A stretch of DNA of 41,417 nucleotides from a virus: positions 1-41,417 of the IMG/VR virus record IMGVR_UViG_3300045988_097494. One strand, 5' to 3'. Positions 12,256 through 41,417 of this stretch are shown here, piece after piece; the stretch's first letter is position 1, and the number at the start of each line of letters is the position of its first letter. The translations under genes and the position numbers were made by a program. The notes beneath the pieces were generated by a model. The model was not told the DNA's origin and made no database searches. It saw nothing but the letters and a program-made list of their open reading frames with translations.

Positions 12256-13419
12256 ATGACCCCCCTTGATGAAGCCATCATCGAGAACGACCTCCTCCCC
12301 GAGGACCAGCGCGCCAGCAACGTAGAGCTCGCCGCACGATTCAACACATCAGAGTCGTCCGTGCGCCGCCACCGCGCCAAGCTCAAGCGCCGCGGAGCCC
12401 CAGACATGGGGCACGACGCATTCTTCAATGACGTCCCAGTAGAGGCCATCACGCAGCGCGGGAAGACGATCCGCCTCCCCGATGGCTCCTACGAGAAGAT
12501 CACCTGGCGTCCGGGTGCGGTCGAGATGGCGGAGGCTAAGCGCCTCTCCTATAGCGACCTGGAGCCAGTATTCCAGGAGCCCCTCCTCACCAAGCCCACC
12601 AAGATCGCCGACAACTCCACCAAGGTCGTATGCCTCGCCGACTTTCAGATTGGCAAGCGACAGTCAGGCGGTGGAACCGAGGACACGGTTCGCCTCGTCC
12701 GCCGCGCCCTCAAGGACATCGCGGACGACATTCGCTTCCGTGGCCCCTACAAGCGGATCATCCTCGCCGACGTAGGAGACTCGACTGAGGGCTTCTGGAA
12801 TGTCGCCAGCCAGGCCCAGACCAACGACCTCTCCCTCACGGACCAGATTCGCGCCGTGCAACGCCTATACGCCGGAGCCCTCCAGCTGCTTGCCCCTCTC
12901 TGTGAGTCCCTCTACTATGTGGCCGTTCCATCCAACCACTGCGCCGTCCGCACCGGGCAGGGTAAAAACAGTCGCGCCAACGCCCCGGATGACGACTTCG
13001 GAATCATGATCTCAAAGAATATTGAGGATATCATCGCCGGGCGCCCCGGATATGAGCATGTCACCTTCCACCGCCCAGAGAAGTGGGAGGAGGCTGTCAC
13101 TGTGGATGCGGCTGACGGCACGCGCATTGGCTTCACTCACGGCCACCTAGCGGGCTCACAGAGCAAGGTGCCTGGATGGTTCAGGGACCTCGCGTTCGGG
13201 CGCAGGAGCGGCCTCTACGACGCGAGAATCCTGGTCCACGGGCACTGGCACAACTTCGCCGTGAGCCAGGCCGGGGACGCCCGGTGGATCATCTCCTGCC
13301 CGTCCGCAGATCGCGGCTCTGACTGGTGGACGAACCTGTCTGGGGACTCCACTCGGCCAGCTATCCTCACCTTCGAGGCCCAGGGAGGCAGCGCCTCATC
13401 CTGGGAGCTCTACTCCTGA
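12256..13419 (+). CDS. Calcineurin-like metallophosphoesterase with N-terminal HTH-like region
   Basis: Motifs VVCLADFQIG, ILADVGDSTEG, VPSNHC, FTHGH and VHGHWH. N-terminal segment NVELAARFNTSESSVRRHRAKL. The ATG at 12256 has RBS cagaaagacaaggcaccaATG. Confidence 0.75.
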   Translation: MTPLDEAIIENDLLPEDQRASNVELAARFNTSESSVRRHRAKLKRRGAPDMGHDAFFNDVPVEAITQRGKTIRLPDGSYEKITWRPGAVEMAEAKRLSYSDLEPVFQEPLLTKPTKIADNSTKVVCLADFQIGKRQSGGGTEDTVRLVRRALKDIADDIRFRGPYKRIILADVGDSTEGFWNVASQAQTNDLSLTDQIRAVQRLYAGALQLLAPLCESLYYVAVPSNHCAVRTGQGKNSRANAPDDDFGIMISKNIEDIIAGRPGYEHVTFHRPEKWEEAVTVDAADGTRIGFTHGHLAGSQSKVPGWFRDLAFGRRSGLYDARILVHGHWHNFAVSQAGDARWIISCPSADRGSDWWTNLSGDSTRPAILTFEAQGGSASSWELYS

Positions 13420-13424
13420 ACATA

Positions 13425-32198: not shown

Positions 32199-33190
32199 TT
32201 GCGCTCCTTCAGCTTCTCCCGGAAGTACTTATCCATTGCTCGGCGCGCATCCACACCATGGAGGTCTTGGTCGCGCACAACCTCATTATACACACGTTCG
32301 AATGCGACCTGCTGGTCTTTCCCCTCCCAGTGCTTGGAGGTAAAAACGGGAACAATCGTGCAGAAATCGTGATCGTGAAATCGGTCCACCCTAAGGCCGG
32401 CAGACTCCGACGTCTTGTACACCGGCCCGCGGGATGCGAGCATGGCGCAGAAGCCGCAGGGCCCATTCTTGTTCGGGTGAGTTACGCGCGCGAAAGCGAA
32501 AGGTCTAGCGATGAGCTCGCCACGTGAATTGCGTCGATACTTGTCCGGCACATCGGAGAACACCTTCATGCTGCGGTGGCGCCCCTTAACGAGCTCCTCC
32601 TCGTCAAGGGTGCGAACAGCCTCCTCCACGCGGTCGGCGACCTTCTCGAACGCCTCATCCAGCGTCATGCGCGGGCGACGGCGGGACTCGACCTTCTCTA
32701 CGTCCTCAATGATCGCCTTCTGGGTGCTCTCGGAGAACCCCTCAAGGTCCTTCGCCAGGTCATCCAGGGCGCCCTCAATGAGCTCAATGGAGGACGGTGC
32801 GGTATCCACCGCGTCGGCGACGGTTCGGCGCGCAGCGGCCAGCACATGCCCCTCCAGGGAGCGCTCCAGGCGCCTCATCCCCTCGGGTGACTTCAATGCC
32901 CCCTGAGTGCCGCGGATGGTGCGGGCGATCGTCTTCGGCGAGTACCCAGGCTGTGGAGGCACCCAAGACTCAGGCACCCCAGCCTTACGGGCCTGGCCGC
33001 GCAGGAACAGGGCGGCGGCCGCCCACGCCTGCTTCCTGGCCTGCCACATGAGCGGAGTCAGTAGGTCGCCCACATGCTCCACGGGGGGCGGCTCAGGGAG
33101 TCCCTCGAACGCTTTGAGGGCATCCTCGGCTCGACGCCTGAACAGCATGACAATGCCGCGCAGGATGCTGTAGAACAGGACCTCACTCAC
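32195..33190 (-). CDS. MuF/SPP1 gp7-like head morphogenesis protein
   Basis: It follows the portal gene. C-terminal motif GPCGFCAMLASRG...HDHDFCTIVP. The GTG at 33190 follows GAGGAGG and overlaps the portal stop. An alternative ATG lies at 33148. Confidence 0.5.
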   Translation of the reverse strand: MSEVLFYSILRGIVMLFRRRAEDALKAFEGLPEPPPVEHVGDLLTPLMWQARKQAWAAAALFLRGQARKAGVPESWVPPQPGYSPKTIARTIRGTQGALKSPEGMRRLERSLEGHVLAAARRTVADAVDTAPSSIELIEGALDDLAKDLEGFSESTQKAIIEDVEKVESRRRPRMTLDEAFEKVADRVEEAVRTLDEEELVKGRHRSMKVFSDVPDKYRRNSRGELIARPFAFARVTHPNKNGPCGFCAMLASRGPVYKTSESAGLRVDRFHDHDFCTIVPVFTSKHWEGKDQQVAFERVYNEVVRDQDLHGVDARRAMDKYFREKLKERK

Positions 33191-34505
33191 TCTCAGGGGC
33201 CTCCTCGGAGTCCTCCGGGGCCTCAGGCGCCTCGGGCATATCCAGGCCAGCGTCGGCATCCATCTTGTCCCCGCGGGCCTTCTCGCGGCGCAGCTGCTCA
33301 GGGGTGAGGTGCAGAAACTCGCGGGCCGTCTCATCGCCGATGATGCCCTGGCTGTGCGCCTGGAGGGCATTCGCCATCTGTGCCGAGGTGGAGGGGGCGG
33401 CAGCGTCGCGCCACGTCACCTCCAGGGCCTCAAGCCCATCCAGGGACATGCCGTTCGCCTGCGCCACGATCCGGCCTACACGCTCCAGGGCGTCACTGAA
33501 CTGGCGCTGCTTGTTCTCCGCTCGAGCGATGAGTCGGTCCTTCGCCACACGCAGCGCCTCGGCCGACGTCGGATTGTTGTCCGACGAGACACCCATCATC
33601 GACGGGGGGATACCGGTCATGGCGGACAGCTGGAGAGCGTAGGAGCGGTACGTGTTGATGAACGGGTCCAGTGCCATGCCGGTAAGCTGCTTCACGTCAC
33701 CACCGGAAGGGATGGCGATCAGGTTCCCCATGTACGCCTGCATCTTCTCGGGATACTGGTCGATCATGGCGGAAGCACCGTCACCCACGACCGCACGCAG
33801 CGGGGACGACGCAACTTCCTGAGCCACCTGCAGGTTCGTGAGCGTGCGGGAGGCAGCGTCAATGACTGAGGTGAGCTCACGCAGGTCAGAGCGCCCGTAC
33901 CTGTCGGACAGGCGCGCCCTGTTGAACATGGGGACGATGGATGCCCCCCACTGATCCTGGCGGCCCTGGCCGACACTCTTCCAGTCGTACCTGCCCTTCA
34001 CATAGAACTCCACGCCCTCGGGCGTGTAGTAGGTGGCCCCCACGTTCCCGTCATCGCGGCGGTAGAGGACAATGCCCTCCACGACCTCGCCACGGAAGTT
34101 GATCCGAACACTAGCGTGCTTCGCATCCACAGCCCGAATGGACGCAAACTCGTGCTCGTCATCCGGCGGGGCGATCACCCAGTACGCGGCGCCAGCGCTA
34201 ATGGCCTCCGCGGCCGCCAGGTTGAACTGGGAGTCCATGTCATTCGCCTGCCACGTCTTCCGCAGTAGATCAACCACACCCAGCTTGTCGTCATCGGCGA
34301 CGCGGTACCCGTCAGGGATGAGAATCTCGGTGAGGACGTCCACTGCCATCTTGGCGAACGGGGCCTGAATCTCCAGGACGCGCGCCTTCGCGGGGAGGCT
34401 GATGCCCACCGCGTCGAGACGTCGCTTACCCTCGTAGTAGCCCTCATAGGTGATGGGCCGGTAGGCGCCCGACGCGAACTTGGCGATCATCTTCTGGAAG
34501 CTCAT
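33183..34505 (-). CDS. Portal protein
   Basis: 440 aa from the ATG at 34505 (ATGA overlap with the terL stop). Assigned by position, size and an acidic C-terminal tail. Confidence 0.8.
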   Translation of the reverse strand: MSFQKMIAKFASGAYRPITYEGYYEGKRRLDAVGISLPAKARVLEIQAPFAKMAVDVLTEILIPDGYRVADDDKLGVVDLLRKTWQANDMDSQFNLAAAEAISAGAAYWVIAPPDDEHEFASIRAVDAKHASVRINFRGEVVEGIVLYRRDDGNVGATYYTPEGVEFYVKGRYDWKSVGQGRQDQWGASIVPMFNRARLSDRYGRSDLRELTSVIDAASRTLTNLQVAQEVASSPLRAVVGDGASAMIDQYPEKMQAYMGNLIAIPSGGDVKQLTGMALDPFINTYRSYALQLSAMTGIPPSMMGVSSDNNPTSAEALRVAKDRLIARAENKQRQFSDALERVGRIVAQANGMSLDGLEALEVTWRDAAAPSTSAQMANALQAHSQGIIGDETAREFLHLTPEQLRREKARGDKMDADAGLDMPEAPEAPEDSEEAPESE

Positions 34506-37297
34506 ATGAACACCTTCCACTCGCCTCGCGGAGCAGTCAGGTCCGCCCACTCCTTCGAGTTCTTCACATGTCTGTACAGCATTCTAGCGCCGATCATACA
34601 CACGGCGAGGTCGATCTTCTTAGACGACTTTGGAGACTCCTTCTTCACCGACCAGCGTCCCTTGAACTCGTTCACGCGGCAGTTCGACACATGCTCACCC
34701 AAAGCCGAGTCACCATCGTGAGTGAACGTCTGCTGCTGAATCTCCGTGAACGCCGTCTCAGCCGCCTCAGCGAACTGGTACGCGTGCGACCGCATGTCCC
34801 AGGCGATCGGGGATGCGGACATGCCACCACGCACCGCGGGCACGATCAGTCGGTCACCGAAGTCCTCCGGCCACGCCGTGCGCGTGAACGACTCCCACTC
34901 GCGCACGTCAGCCCAGAACGCGACCACGTTATAGGTGTCGAACGCCTTCCGCACCCCAGCATCCACGGCAGCCACATTCACTACGCCGAGGGGCTTCTCC
35001 GGCTTCCAGTGCCCGATCTTGAAGACGTGCCCATCCTCCATGCAGCACCCCACGAGGGCCGTGTGGTCATTGGACTTGGAGCCGTCGAAGAACATGACGA
35101 TGCGCTCCCCGGGCTCAACCTTCCGGTCCGGCTTGCGCAGCTGTGTCCACTCCTCCAGGGTGATCCAGGACGCCTCGGCCGCGTTCGGGCGGTTCAGGAA
35201 GAATCGAATGGAGCGCGACTCAGGGTATTCGGGCGACCAAATCTGCTCCTTGATCGACTCCAGATTCACCCACGGGCAGTCCTCATACACGTACTCCAGG
35301 GCCTTCGTGAGCCCAACCTGCCCCTCCTCCGGCTCGTCCGTTAAAACCGTGTTCGGGGGCGCGATACGCGCATCATAGAGGACCTTCGTCTTACCGCGCG
35401 TGAGACCGTCCTCCTGGTCGCACCACGCCTCGAAGATCGCCTCAGCTGACGACTGCTCACCCGGCACCCACGCGTTACAGGTGCCCATGAAGCGGCCGCC
35501 CATCTTCGCAGCGTTCTGCTGGATCGTCTGCAACATAGCCGGGCCACCCTGGGCGGGCAGCCAGTGCTCGAGCTCATCCCCCACAACGAAGGACACCTCA
35601 CCACCCTCCATCGAGTGGGCGGAGGAAGTCATCTGCTGGAGCTTCCCCCCGCCCGGCGTCTCGATGAACGTCTTCGCCACCTCGAGGTCGTACTTGCGGG
35701 CGAGCGCCCCCTTCTTCTGACAAAACGCCCTGACCATGCGGATCGTGTTCTGCGTGTTGTGCGTAAGCACGCCACCCTCAACCTGGAAGAGGTGATCCTC
35801 CGTGCCGATCTGAATACACTGCACCGGGACGCTCGGAACGGGCTCAATCGACTCGATTCGCCGATACGCCGACAGGTGCCGCTGCTCGCGCGGGAGCCTG
35901 GCCCTGTGCTGCGCCAGGCGAGCGGCAGGGAACCCCGGCTGTGGGATGAACTTCACCAAGCGAGACCCGAAGCCTCCATCATACACGAAGCACTTCTGCC
36001 CCAGAGACTCGGCAAGCTCAATGAACGACGCCAAGAGGTTCGTGTTCGTGTTCTTGAACTGCACCTGCCCCTTCTCGGTGACAGTGCCGTCGGAGTCAAT
36101 GAGCCCCTGTAGGAGCGCCAGACGATCCTCATAGGAGGCGCGCAGGTACTCCTCAGGCACATGCTTATTGCCCAGCACGCCTAGCTCACGCAGGCGCTCA
36201 CGGAACGACAGGAGCTTCTGGTACTTCATTCCCTCCCTGTTGCCCTTGTTGCAGCGGCGACACATCGGGTGACCAGAACTGCTCATGACTCGGTTCGGGT
36301 CACCTTCAGCATAGGAGTGGCCGCGGGGGCACATCTGCCTACGGCGACGGATATAGAAGCGCCCGTCATTGGCTTTCTGGAGGTCGGCCTTGATATCGTC
36401 CCACCACTCCAGTTCGCCAGAGAAGATCGCCTCCAGCTCATCGCGGCGACGCCAGTCGAGAGCGATCGTGGAGCCAGCAGTATCACCATCGCCCAACCAG
36501 TAGCCGAGCATGTAAGGGGAGATCAAGGTCGGAGCACTAACCCCGCCGCGGCGTGCAACAAGGGGGATACGCAGGCTACGTCGGCGGCCGCTGTGCAGGT
36601 AGGTTCGCATCTCCTCGGTGCTCATAGTCGCCACGTCGAAACGGTCACCATGCGGGCGCAGACGCTCCACTGTCCACCCGTGGGCGGCGTCGGCAACAAC
36701 CGTCGTCCCATCATCAAAGGTGACTCGATAGCAGTCATGGTCAGTGAACACACGAGTCTTACCGAGCACGGGAGTCGGGTTGCCATCACTGCCGTACACC
36801 ATGTCACCGACATTCAAGTCTCCCACAGTGCTCCAGCCGCCCGCCACGGGCACCTTAGTATCTAGGGCGAGCGGCTGGCTTTCCGACGTGGCTACGATCT
36901 GCACGAGTGGCATGCTCATTGGCTTCGCACGCACCCCGAACGGCTCATGACGATCGAACCCGTCGAACCGGCAAGGGCCGAGGAGTTCGAACAGGCACAA
37001 CGCGGCAGCGAACGGAGACTTCCCGGATCCTTTGCTTAACCTTCTAATTCCCTGCCTGTACACAAAGGAACCCTTATGGGTAAGGGCGTAGAAATGAGCA
37101 AGAAACTCAATCTGACGATCCGTCGGGATGAACGGCTGACCTGCGCGCGGTCCGTTCGGCTGCACGAGGTTGTCCATCATCCATGCAGCAGCATGATACC
37201 CGAGCGTCCGCTCAGGGAGCTCAAGGGGGAGCGTGTCGGTCCGCTCCCGGGGTGCGGGGAGCGTCTCGGTCACTTCGCGGCCCGCGCCTTCGCCCAA
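34502..37297 (-). CDS. terL: Terminase large subunit, interrupted by an intein
   Basis: Walker A RLSKGSGKSP and Walker B FVVGDELEHW, plus a C-terminal nuclease region. The ORF starts at TTG 37297. An alternative GTG at 37273 overlaps the terS stop (GTGA). Confidence 0.9.
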   Translation of the reverse strand: MGEGAGREVTETLPAPRERTDTLPLELPERTLGYHAAAWMMDNLVQPNGPRAGQPFIPTDRQIEFLAHFYALTHKGSFVYRQGIRRLSKGSGKSPFAAALCLFELLGPCRFDGFDRHEPFGVRAKPMSMPLVQIVATSESQPLALDTKVPVAGGWSTVGDLNVGDMVYGSDGNPTPVLGKTRVFTDHDCYRVTFDDGTTVVADAAHGWTVERLRPHGDRFDVATMSTEEMRTYLHSGRRRSLRIPLVARRGGVSAPTLISPYMLGYWLGDGDTAGSTIALDWRRRDELEAIFSGELEWWDDIKADLQKANDGRFYIRRRRQMCPRGHSYAEGDPNRVMSSSGHPMCRRCNKGNREGMKYQKLLSFRERLRELGVLGNKHVPEEYLRASYEDRLALLQGLIDSDGTVTEKGQVQFKNTNTNLLASFIELAESLGQKCFVYDGGFGSRLVKFIPQPGFPAARLAQHRARLPREQRHLSAYRRIESIEPVPSVPVQCIQIGTEDHLFQVEGGVLTHNTQNTIRMVRAFCQKKGALARKYDLEVAKTFIETPGGGKLQQMTSSAHSMEGGEVSFVVGDELEHWLPAQGGPAMLQTIQQNAAKMGGRFMGTCNAWVPGEQSSAEAIFEAWCDQEDGLTRGKTKVLYDARIAPPNTVLTDEPEEGQVGLTKALEYVYEDCPWVNLESIKEQIWSPEYPESRSIRFFLNRPNAAEASWITLEEWTQLRKPDRKVEPGERIVMFFDGSKSNDHTALVGCCMEDGHVFKIGHWKPEKPLGVVNVAAVDAGVRKAFDTYNVVAFWADVREWESFTRTAWPEDFGDRLIVPAVRGGMSASPIAWDMRSHAYQFAEAAETAFTEIQQQTFTHDGDSALGEHVSNCRVNEFKGRWSVKKESPKSSKKIDLAVCMIGARMLYRHVKNSKEWADLTAPRGEWKVFI
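35756..36874 (-). mobile_element. Intein (373 aa, class-3-like) with LAGLIDADG homing endonuclease
   Basis: Block A PLALDTKVPV, block B TTVVADAAHGW, LAGLIDADG motifs LGYWLGDGD and LLQGLIDSDG, block F VQCIQIGTEDHLF, and block G GVLTHN followed by Thr. This corresponds to aa 142-514 of the ORF. Confidence 0.85.
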
Positions 37298-37707
37298 GCC
37301 TGGAGCGCAACCACGCCCGCCGACTCGGCCTCGGACTCGTCTACGCGGTTGATCTCGATCTGCACGCGCCTACGGTCACCCTCAGTGAGCAGGAGGCTAG
37401 TGAGCATCGTGTTCACCGCCGCCAGCATCGTAGGTGAGCGCCGATCCTGCATCTTGTAGTTCGACAGGTCATCGCAGGTGGAGTAGAGGACGATCCAGTC
37501 GGAGGGCTCGTAGTAGCGGATGAACGTGGACTGCTCCACAGCCTTCCACAGCTTCTTCGCAATCGGATGCCAGTCAGGGTCAGGCTTAGGAGGCTTCACC
37601 TGCTCCGCGACCACGTTCACGGGCTCCACGCCACCATCGAGCTTCCTCGCCTGCGTGGTGCGGTGCCCTTCCGTGCTGCGCTTAGGGATCGGTCCCTTAA
37701 CTCCCAT
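37270..37707 (-). CDS. terS: Terminase small subunit (P27 family-like)
   Basis: The N-terminal MGVKGPIPKRSTE motif is typical of P27-type small terminases. RBS aggagagtcgacgATG. Confidence 0.75.
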   Translation of the reverse strand: MGVKGPIPKRSTEGHRTTQARKLDGGVEPVNVVAEQVKPPKPDPDWHPIAKKLWKAVEQSTFIRYYEPSDWIVLYSTCDDLSNYKMQDRRSPTMLAAVNTMLTSLLLTEGDRRRVQIEINRVDESEAESAGVVALQAWAKARAAK

Positions 37708-37718
37708 CGTCGACTCTC

Positions 37719-38051
37719 CTACAAGTATCCGGGGTGCTTACTCTTCGGCCTAGGGCCTCGAGCTTTATTGCCTCGATTATAGCGCCTCTTCCGCGCTTCA
37801 ACAGACTGCTGCTGTGTCCTGGCCATATGGCAGTGCTGGCAGAGACTCCTCAGGTTATCCGGCACGTGGGGGCCGTCAGGGAAGATATGGTCCACCTGAT
37901 TCGCCCTAGCACCACAGAACACACAGAGGCCGCCGTCGCGCTTAAGGACCGTGCGCCTGATCTTCTCCCAGTCCTTAGGGAGCTCCTTGCGGCGCCTGGA
38001 CTGTTTACTCCACGCCAACAGTATGCACCCGCCACAACTCGACAGTAGCAC
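37719..38051 (-). CDS. HNH endonuclease adjacent to terminase
   Basis: LPKDWEKIRRTVLKRDGGLCVFCG...VDHIFP...NLRSLCQHCH. The start is uncertain (ATG 38051 or TTG 38018). Confidence 0.8.
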   Translation of the reverse strand: MLLSSCGGCILLAWSKQSRRRKELPKDWEKIRRTVLKRDGGLCVFCGARANQVDHIFPDGPHVPDNLRSLCQHCHMARTQQQSVEARKRRYNRGNKARGPRPKSKHPGYL

Positions 38052-41368: not shown

Positions 41369-41394
41369 CACGCCTGTCCCACCCTGTCTACACT
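41365..41394 (+). promoter_or_regulatory. Putative early promoter spanning the end junction
   Basis: TTGACA (41365-41370), 18-nt spacer, TACACT (41389-41394, equal to 21-26 after wrap). It is followed by CCATCAGCA and a GAAAGGA RBS, the same layout as at 1282-1312 and 3150-3180. Confidence 0.5.
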
Positions 41395-41417
41395 CCAACC
41401 ATCAGCACAGCCGAAAG
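41369..41417. repeat. Terminal direct repeat, right copy (identical to 1..49)
   Basis: Exact 49-nt identity with the window start. Confidence 0.9.

Follow-up and report, generated by a model that had tools for sequence, protein, structure and literature searches.

A predicted class 3 intein with a LAGLIDADG homing endonuclease and a zinc-ribbon-like module in the large terminase subunit of a relative of a human oral actinophage

The IMG/VR virus record IMGVR_UViG_3300045988_097494 was analysed as a single stretch of 41,417 nucleotides (positions 1 to 41,417 of the record), which we call the window, and among its genes is a long minus-strand open reading frame (ORF) for the terminase large subunit (TerL) that is interrupted by an insert of 373 amino acids (aa). 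The insert starts 47 residues past the Walker A Lys and precedes Walker B, and is thus positioned within the ATPase core (Table 1). A first-pass annotation, made from the letters alone, had placed this insert at aa 142-514 between the two Walker motifs; the translation reproduces that placement exactly, together with every motif named at the time (splicing blocks A, B, F and G, two LAGLIDADG motifs and a Cys/His-rich CPRGH...CRRC segment). From the comparisons described below, the insert is very probably an intact class 3 intein with an in-frame LAGLIDADG homing endonuclease. It lies at a known insertion site, TerL1-c, and is a real but ordinary member of its class apart from one extra module in the endonuclease.

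Table 1. Features of the terminase locus in the window, with the evidence for each
Feature	Position	Strand	Evidence and remarks
TerL precursor ORF	34502..37297	minus	931 aa, ~104 kDa, TTG start; ORF listing
N-extein, aa 1-141, ending ...IVATSESQ; holds Walker A	36875..37297	minus	translation and alignment
Walker A, GSGKS	37016-37030	minus	translated coordinates
Intein (predicted), 373 aa, 41.9 kDa, Pro1...Asn373 (ORF aa 142-514)	35756..36874	minus	clean gap against intein-free allele
Splicing block A, PLALDTKVPVAGG; position 1 Pro, non-nucleophile	36836..36874	minus	alignments, translation
Cys48	36731..36733	minus	Cys in 121/121 aligned sequences; aligned with Cys48 of 6BS8
Splicing block B, GTTVVADAAHGWTV; D62-x-x-H65, Trp67 (W of the WCT triplet)	36668..36709	minus	alignments, translation
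LAGLIDADG motif 1 (block C), LGYWLGDG; catalytic Asp129	36485..36508	minus	Asp in 121/121 homologues; PI-SceI/I-DmoI fold match
Zinc-ribbon-like module, CPRGHSYAEGDPNRVMSSSGHPMCRRC (C182, H186, C205, C208), N-terminal half of endonuclease	36251..36331	minus	translation, profile search
Endonuclease block D, LGNKHVP; Lys237	36155..36175	minus	Lys in 119/121; inside Hom_end and LAGLIDADG_3 match region
LAGLIDADG motif 2 (block E), LLQGLIDSDG; catalytic Asp262	36086..36115	minus	Asp in 118/121; aligned to PI-SceI
Splicing block F, VQCIQIGTEDHLF; Cys353 (ORF aa 494), predicted initiating nucleophile	35786..35824	minus	aligned with 6BS8 Cys118 and Bethlehem gp10 Cys320
Splicing block G, GVLTHN (Thr371, His372, Asn373), then +1 nucleophile Thr515	35753..35773	minus	alignments, translation
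C-extein, aa 515-931 and stop, starting TQNTIRMV; holds Walker B and nuclease domain	34502..35755	minus	alignment, PHROGs, translation
Walker B, VVGDELEH	35564-35587	minus	translated coordinates
Small terminase subunit ORF (TerS), upstream of TerL	37270-37707	minus	Pfam Terminase_7, E 7e-38
SPP1-type portal ORF, downstream of TerL	33183-34550		

The borders of the insert are fixed by an intein-free allele. A megablast search of phage genomes with the TerL ORF returned a single record, Caudovirus D_HF2_7 (OR148984.1), a 41.8-kb circular genome from human saliva, which aligns with 90% nucleotide identity in two segments that together span the whole ORF apart from the insert. Its annotated terminase has 558 aa, which equals 931 minus 373, and the extein proteins are 98% identical and align with one clean gap of 373 columns. 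This is the comparison with an intein-free homologue that the first-pass annotation had proposed, and it bears out the prediction that removal of the insert joins IVATSESQ directly to TQNTIRMV, since D_HF2_7 reads IVATSESQ/TQNTIRMV at the junction in the protein alignment, with which the DNA alignment agrees. The gap cannot slide, because Gln differs from Asn at one end and Pro differs from Thr at the other; the intein's first residue is therefore Pro, as had been suspected, and the +1 residue is Thr515, which is kept as Thr in the intein-free allele. The insert resembles its exteins in composition, with a guanine-plus-cytosine (GC) content of 0.615 against 0.621 and a third-position content (GC3) of 0.74 against 0.80. 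Extein divergence from D_HF2_7 amounts to 7-11 differences per 60 nucleotides (nt) near the junction and to about 5 elsewhere; the excess is small and we do not claim a co-conversion tract. The plus-strand ORFs that run across the intein (36269-36865 and 35564-36112) gave no meaningful family match, so that an antisense homing endonuclease like those reported by a 2025 survey of actinobacteriophages (bioRxiv 10.1101/2025.01.02.630785) is absent.

The residues that set class 3 inteins apart are all in place. Position 1 is Pro and not Cys, Ser or Thr; Trp67 occupies block B position 12, two residues past the block B His (His65); Cys353 stands at block F position 4; Thr371 at block G position 5 is followed by His372-Asn373; and the +1 residue is Thr. 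Direct alignment to the structure 6BS8 and to the gp10 intein of mycobacteriophage Bethlehem places this Trp-Cys-Thr (WCT) triplet in register with characterised class 3 inteins, and so upholds the class assignment made in the first-pass annotation. A phmmer search of the PDB with the insert found the class 3 Msm DnaB intein (6BS8/6OWN, E 8.5e-21) and the M. chimaera DnaB-1 intein (6RIX/6RIY, E ~1e-20), with ADAAHGW paired to ADAQHQW, VPVQCIQI to VPVRCVEV and LTHN to PTHN, while the middle of the insert matched PI-SceI. In an alignment of the 120 best homologues from a search of 5.8 billion proteins plus the window sequence itself (n = 121), the Trp is invariant (121/121), the block F Cys is present in 120 and the block G Thr in 117; at position 1, 97 sequences have Ala, 11 Pro and 9 Gly, and at +1, 91 have Ser and 22 Thr. 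Judged by these columns the relatives are essentially all class 3 inteins, and their host proteins include dCTP deaminase, DnaB, RecA and TerL. An ordinary class 1 intein, with its border misplaced and a Cys, Ser or Thr at the true N-terminal junction, had been put forward at the outset (as Cys or Ser) as the reading that would displace class 3. It has next to no chance of being correct, for the intein-free allele pins SESQ/P...N/TQNT with Pro at position 1, the nearest Ser lies at -3 and is part of the conserved extein, and Pro1 of the homologous Bethlehem intein has been seen by N-terminal protein sequencing (PMC2807308). A class 2 (KlbA-type) intein was excluded because a WCT triplet is present.

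The predicted structure agrees with this assignment. An AlphaFold2 model of the intein, built with 51 homologues, has a predicted local distance difference test score (pLDDT) of 93.9 and a predicted template modelling score (pTM) of 0.92. In Foldseek comparisons, the best full-length fold match is PI-SceI, the Sce VMA1 intein (template modelling score 0.65, E 2.6e-18), the HINT halves resemble 6BS8 and 6RIX with a root-mean-square deviation of 2.7-2.9 Å with probability 1.00 and 41-44% identity, and the endonuclease part matches I-DmoI. The window intein shares with PI-SceI the two-domain build of HINT plus LAGLIDADG, and its LIDSDG block E and block D align with those of that protein, whereas PI-SceI belongs to class 1 (with Cys1 and an Asp at F:4), has no zinc-ribbon-like module and is only about 15% identical. 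The nearest solved structures, Msm DnaBi1 (6BS8/6OWN) and M. chimaera DnaB-1 (6RIX/6RIY), are alike in D62xxH65-x-W67, Cys48, the block F Cys and THN, but are endonuclease-free mini-inteins in the P-loop of DnaB rather than in TerL, and differ in residue 1 (Ala, against Pro in the window) and in the +1 residue (Ser, against Thr).

The closest relationship to a characterised system is with cluster-A mycobacteriophages, whose terminases rank first in a tblastn search of phage genomes with the insert, with full-length coverage and E values of 1e-68 to 1e-75 (40.8% identity for Anglerfish and 39.5% for Bethlehem). Matches of this strength, 8.5e-21 for phmmer to the Msm DnaB intein and 3e-75 for tblastn to mycobacteriophage TerL inteins, lie well outside what chance would give. 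In an alignment of four TerL sequences the mycobacteriophage inteins occupy the identical site, SQDQ/PLALNTEV...LTHN/TKNT, likewise with Pro1, and the inteins of both lineages lie between an invariant Q and T-x-N-T, which is the TerL1-c insertion site. Class 3 was defined by Tori et al. 2010 (PMC2807308) on an intein that was called the 'MP-Be DnaB intein', of 341 aa, with Pro1 (established by N-terminal sequencing), His65, Trp67, an obligate Cys320, Thr339, His340, Asn341 and Thr+1, and a sequenced spliced junction of ...VSQDQ/TKNTFSLFPI. Because its length, key residues and spliced junction all match the gp10 TerL intein of Bethlehem (L003), sequence comparison identifies the 'MP-Be DnaB' intein as that intein. 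The first-pass annotation was thus right to name the Bethlehem intein as the class 3 prototype and wrong to place it in DnaB; since it sits at the same site in TerL, the window intein is an allelic homologue of the prototype, and not a mere analogue. Kelley et al. 2016 (PMC5050341) classed the Bethlehem gp10 intein as TerL1-c and as class 3, in a clade with mycobacterial DnaB-b inteins, and reported that it splices in a reporter in which it separates maltose-binding protein from green fluorescent protein (MBP-intein-GFP), and that its endonuclease cuts the intein-less terL of Solon. The 2025 survey counted 287 class 3 inteins among some 800 from actinobacteriophages, and put the number located in terminase large subunits at 293 (bioRxiv 10.1101/2025.01.02.630785).

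The two TerL proteins are homologous, with 41% identity overall, and their inteins share the junction pattern ...Q/P-L-A-L...L-T-H-N/T-x-N-T, Pro1, His65 and Trp67 at the same numbering, the block F Cys, Thr-His-Asn and Thr+1, as well as an in-frame two-motif LAGLIDADG endonuclease. Their target sites are also close: the window has CCAG/ACGCAGAACACG and Bethlehem CCAG/ACGAAGAACACG, and in the central part, CCAG/ACGnAGAACACG, 15 of 16 nt are identical. They differ in that the inteins are about 40% identical and have 373 aa in the window against 341 in Bethlehem, the extra length being mainly a 37-aa insertion with the zinc-ribbon-like module; in that Cys48 of the window is a Thr in Bethlehem; and in their carriers, the window phage being a relative of the human oral actinophage D_HF2_7 from saliva and Bethlehem a Fromanvirus.

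By homology to the Bethlehem intein and Msm DnaBi1, a pathway for splicing and homing can be proposed. Once the 104-kDa precursor had folded, the thiol of Cys353 (block F:4) would attack the Gln141-Pro142 bond, activated by His65, Trp67 and Asp62, to form the block F branched thioester; the corresponding Cys is the obligate initiating nucleophile of the allelic Bethlehem intein (PMC2807308). The N-extein would then pass to the hydroxyl of Thr515 to give the block G branched ester, Asn373 would cyclise with the assistance of His372 to release the 41.9-kDa intein, and an O-to-N acyl shift would join Gln141 to Thr515 in a mature TerL of 558 aa and 62.5 kDa. During co-infection, or when a phage meets a prophage, the free intein would cut intein-less terL at ...CCAG/ACG..., and repair of the cut gene by recombination would copy the intein in. 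Because Walker A and Walker B flank the insert, packaging should require splicing.

That requirement raises the question of whether the intein acts as a conditional switch, with splicing and packaging reversibly blocked by a disulfide between Cys48 and Cys353 or by zinc at Cys353. The precedent is Msm DnaBi1, in which Cys48 is essential, hydrogen peroxide produces a Cys48-Cys118 disulfide that blocks splicing (PMC6195587) and zinc on Cys118 inhibits splicing reversibly (PMC7360933). Cys48 and Cys353 of the window align with this pair, and Cys48, which Kelley et al. 2018 call non-conserved, is found in all 121 sequences of the present alignment; slightly more TerL precursor also accumulated in an oxidising E. 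coli strain (Kelley 2016, PMC5050341). Against a switch, all five TerL inteins tested in that study spliced readily, with the ligated exteins as the main product (PMC5050341), Bethlehem gp10 splices with a Thr in place of Cys48, which makes the pair dispensable, and sensitivity in vitro is by itself no proof of an adaptive role. We regard redox or zinc sensitivity of the window intein in vitro as plausible, its regulatory role as a checkpoint as unproven, and the switch as a whole as a reading with perhaps some merit that is nevertheless probably wrong.

Turning from splicing to homing, the middle of the insert carries the two catalytic Asp residues (Asp129 and Asp262) and the block D Lys (Lys237) of a two-motif LAGLIDADG enzyme, and Pfam models for such enzymes score above their cutoffs (LAGLIDADG_3, 25.8 bits against 22.5; Hom_end, 21.3 against a gathering cutoff of 21.1). 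The released intein is therefore predicted to act as a LAGLIDADG endonuclease on intein-less terL. Such targets still exist, because close relatives differ in whether they carry the intein, the number of TerL inteins being zero in D_HF2_7, one in the window and two in P0121. The latter is a protein of 1089 aa that shares 97% identity with the window over the intein and C-extein; its second intein lies in the Walker A P-loop, GSGK/ASDLRHKILTTDGW...ARCITVAAEDGLYLVGETMVVTHN/SPF, and is a mini-intein of 158 aa with Ala1, a block F Cys and THN/Ser+1. In this mini-intein Phe replaces the Trp after the block B His, which by sequence marks it as a class-3-like 'FCT' variant; the P-loop of the window, by contrast, is uninterrupted. 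A more distant variant, 74% identical at the amino acid level, occupies the same TerL site in an ENA metagenome contig (ERZ4768188 k141_3670, 1-2064; L004), which is frameshifted once between blocks F and G, carries a compensating pair in the C-extein around Walker B, and represents either poor assembly or a copy in decay.

Several observations weigh against an intact intein with both activities. When the ORF and the insert were scanned against Pfam and NCBIfam, no dedicated intein-splicing (Hint) model matched, the result besides the endonuclease families being only weak matches to intein-containing radical-SAM models, so that the profile-model scan which the first-pass annotation had recommended bore out the endonuclease and not the splicing domain, and the class assignment draws on the PDB and phage homologues instead. 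Pfam likewise found no terminase ATPase family in the spliced TerL (Terminase_1 was unmatched). The evidence for the window intein consists of sequence comparison and a predicted model. In the natural empty site of D_HF2_7, 4 of the 16 central nt differ from the occupied site, all synonymously, which bears on whether that site can be cleaved. The only contig with the 74% variant is the one that carries frameshifts. Finally, the ratio of nonsynonymous to synonymous divergence (dN/dS) between this variant and the window, 0.16 for the whole intein, 0.15 for the endonuclease and 0.17 for the N-terminal HINT part, against 0.04-0.05 for the exteins, is approximate, dS between the two inteins being ~1.2-1.4 and near saturation. 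Even so, these ratios indicate that the intein, including its endonuclease, is under purifying selection, and since the catalytic residues are also intact, both activities appear to have been maintained.

These observations bear on two further alternatives. A permanent, unspliced TerL domain, or a relic that has lost the ability to splice, is very hard to reconcile with a segment that separates Walker A from Walker B, with a terminase that has 98%-identical exteins and is entirely without the segment, with the intactness of every class 3 splicing residue, and with purifying selection on the splicing part; we give it very little credence, if slightly more than the class 1 reading. The other alternative, that splicing works and the endonuclease is inactive, the intein having become fixed and being passed on vertically as a passenger that is turning into a mini-intein, deserves more consideration, given that decay after fixation is frequent under the homing-cycle model (bioRxiv 10.1101/2025.01.02.630785), and both the four synonymous differences in the D_HF2_7 site and the frameshifted related copy would fit with it. 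We nevertheless consider it unlikely. The window intein, like nearly all homologues, retains the two catalytic Asp residues and the block D Lys, the endonuclease has a dN/dS of about 0.15 and is modelled with high confidence, empty targets persist among close relatives, and the endonuclease of the allelic Bethlehem intein is active (PMC5050341). We make no claim of a resistant empty site in D_HF2_7, four differences being not clearly above expectation at a proportion of synonymous differences (pS) of ~0.36.

An intact class 3 intein with a functional endonuclease thus remains the preferred reading, and what distinguishes it from its mycobacteriophage alleles is the zinc-ribbon-like module. The Cys/His-rich insertion pointed out in the first-pass annotation is indeed present and can now be described more closely, as a module common to HNH_3 endonucleases. 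It is missing from the mycobacteriophage alleles, where the TerL alignment has a 37-column gap, and is found in all seven of the closest TerL inteins from our first search, each with Pro1 at the Q/T site. It exists in a short form, C-x2-GH-x11-C-x2-C, and in a longer form found in the window and P0001, the loop in the window being 8 residues longer than in the short-form inserts. With a profile made from the seven intein inserts only (A5), a search of 1.84 billion representative proteins brought in further TerL inteins, P0123 carrying the short form and P0136 a long form. Besides TerL inteins the profile recovered small proteins at E values of 2e-7 to 1e-3, with 2-5 matched stretches in each, and in most of those scanned an HNH_3 domain precedes a series of tandem repeats, of which CPRGHPYDAENTRIGSKGERLCRTC in P0127 is one. 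Seven such proteins (P0124, P0125, P0127, P0128, P0130, P0132 and P0135), small and mostly with HNH_3, have 2-5 tandem copies of a module of ~25 aa with the pattern C-P-x-G-H-x-Y-x3-N-...-G-x-R-x-C-R-x-C. No Pfam or NCBIfam model covers this HNH_3-associated repeat, which appears to be an uncurated zinc-ribbon-like repeat.

The link to HNH_3 comes from the profile search, since other searches with the insert on its own gave nothing usable; a tblastn search of phage genomes with the 53-aa insert gave no match, and a Pfam RING match was dismissed as meaningless. In PHROGs the module matches an HNH endonuclease family (phrog_826, E 4e-4). In the model it forms two short strands immediately after a beta-hairpin of the N-terminal endonuclease half, with a pLDDT of ~90 that dips to 71 after it. 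Free-standing HNH_3 (PF13392) homing endonucleases have C-terminal tandem CxxGH...N...CxxC repeats, a pattern into which CPRGHSYAEGDPNRVMSSSGHPMCRRC fits, the difference being that in those enzymes a tandem array is attached to the HNH domain whereas in the window a single copy is embedded in a LAGLIDADG domain; zinc-ribbon HNH endonucleases in general have been described by Xu et al. 2013 (PMC3592412). From this resemblance we infer that the module is one zinc-ribbon-like DNA-binding unit grafted onto the LAGLIDADG domain, where it most likely adds DNA contacts. It is possible to go further and to imagine the endonuclease of this subclade as a natural chimera, in which a LAGLIDADG core has taken up one unit of the tandem HNH_3-type repeat and thereby acquired a changed or extended target recognition that helps it to move between divergent terL genes, while redox or zinc gating through Cys48 and Cys353 controls the maturation of the terminase, and hence packaging, in phages of the mouth; taken as a whole, this is speculative and we would not expect it to hold.

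The identity of the interrupted protein as TerL is drawn from PHROGs, from the annotation of homologues and from gene order, because no Pfam ATPase family matched; Pfam TerL_nuclease reached only 19.6 bits on the spliced protein, below its cutoff of 24. The spliced protein matches phrog_9, terminase large subunit (E 6.5e-67), both Walker motifs are present, and the gene lies between those for TerS and portal, in the order TerS-TerL-portal, with a 28-nt overlap between the 3' end of TerS and the TTG start of TerL. When the intein-free TerL was searched against PDB sequences, no usable match emerged for mapping the insertion site onto a solved TerL. The best PHROG of the TerS ORF is phrog_226, labelled 'minor tail protein', where Pfam reports Terminase_7, and this PHROG is probably mislabelled. 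Upstream, TerS is adjoined by a gene for a 110-aa HNH endonuclease (37719-38051, minus strand; Pfam HNH; phrog_333, E 3e-25). An HNH gene beside the terminase is the usual arrangement in cos-type phages.

The window ends in an exact direct repeat of 49 nt (1-49 = 41369-41417) and its first 25 kb are collinear with D_HF2_7, with 81% identity over 61% of that stretch, and because of this repeat and collinearity it is a complete, circularly assembled phage genome of ~41.4 kb (41,368 bp without the repeat). D_HF2_7 and Dulem virus 38 are the only phage-database matches to these first 25 kb, the latter through a segment (12448-13420) with 80.8% nucleotide identity to the polymerase/primase gene of that virus, which comes from a lemur (Varecia variegata) sample. 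The only relative of the intein-free TerL in the genome collection is an intein-less TerL with 58% identity in a Rothia sp. metagenome-assembled genome (NZ_JAUMWB010000001.1, 552620-560221; L005), which hints at Rothia or a related oral actinobacterium as host.

The window intein does not alter our understanding of the class 3 mechanism, and what is new in it is mild, namely an HNH_3-type module in the endonuclease and a polymorphism of zero, one or two inteins in a lineage with a relative from saliva. With it, the range of the best-studied class 3 intein reaches beyond soil mycobacteriophages to a lineage whose closest relative comes from human saliva, and attention is drawn to something easily missed in the literature, that the class 3 prototype named after DnaB in fact sits in a terminase, at the site described here. 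The module offers a small, testable case of the exchange of DNA-binding modules between families of homing endonucleases, and the lineage, with its members carrying no, one or two inteins, is a natural system for studying intein homing while it is under way.

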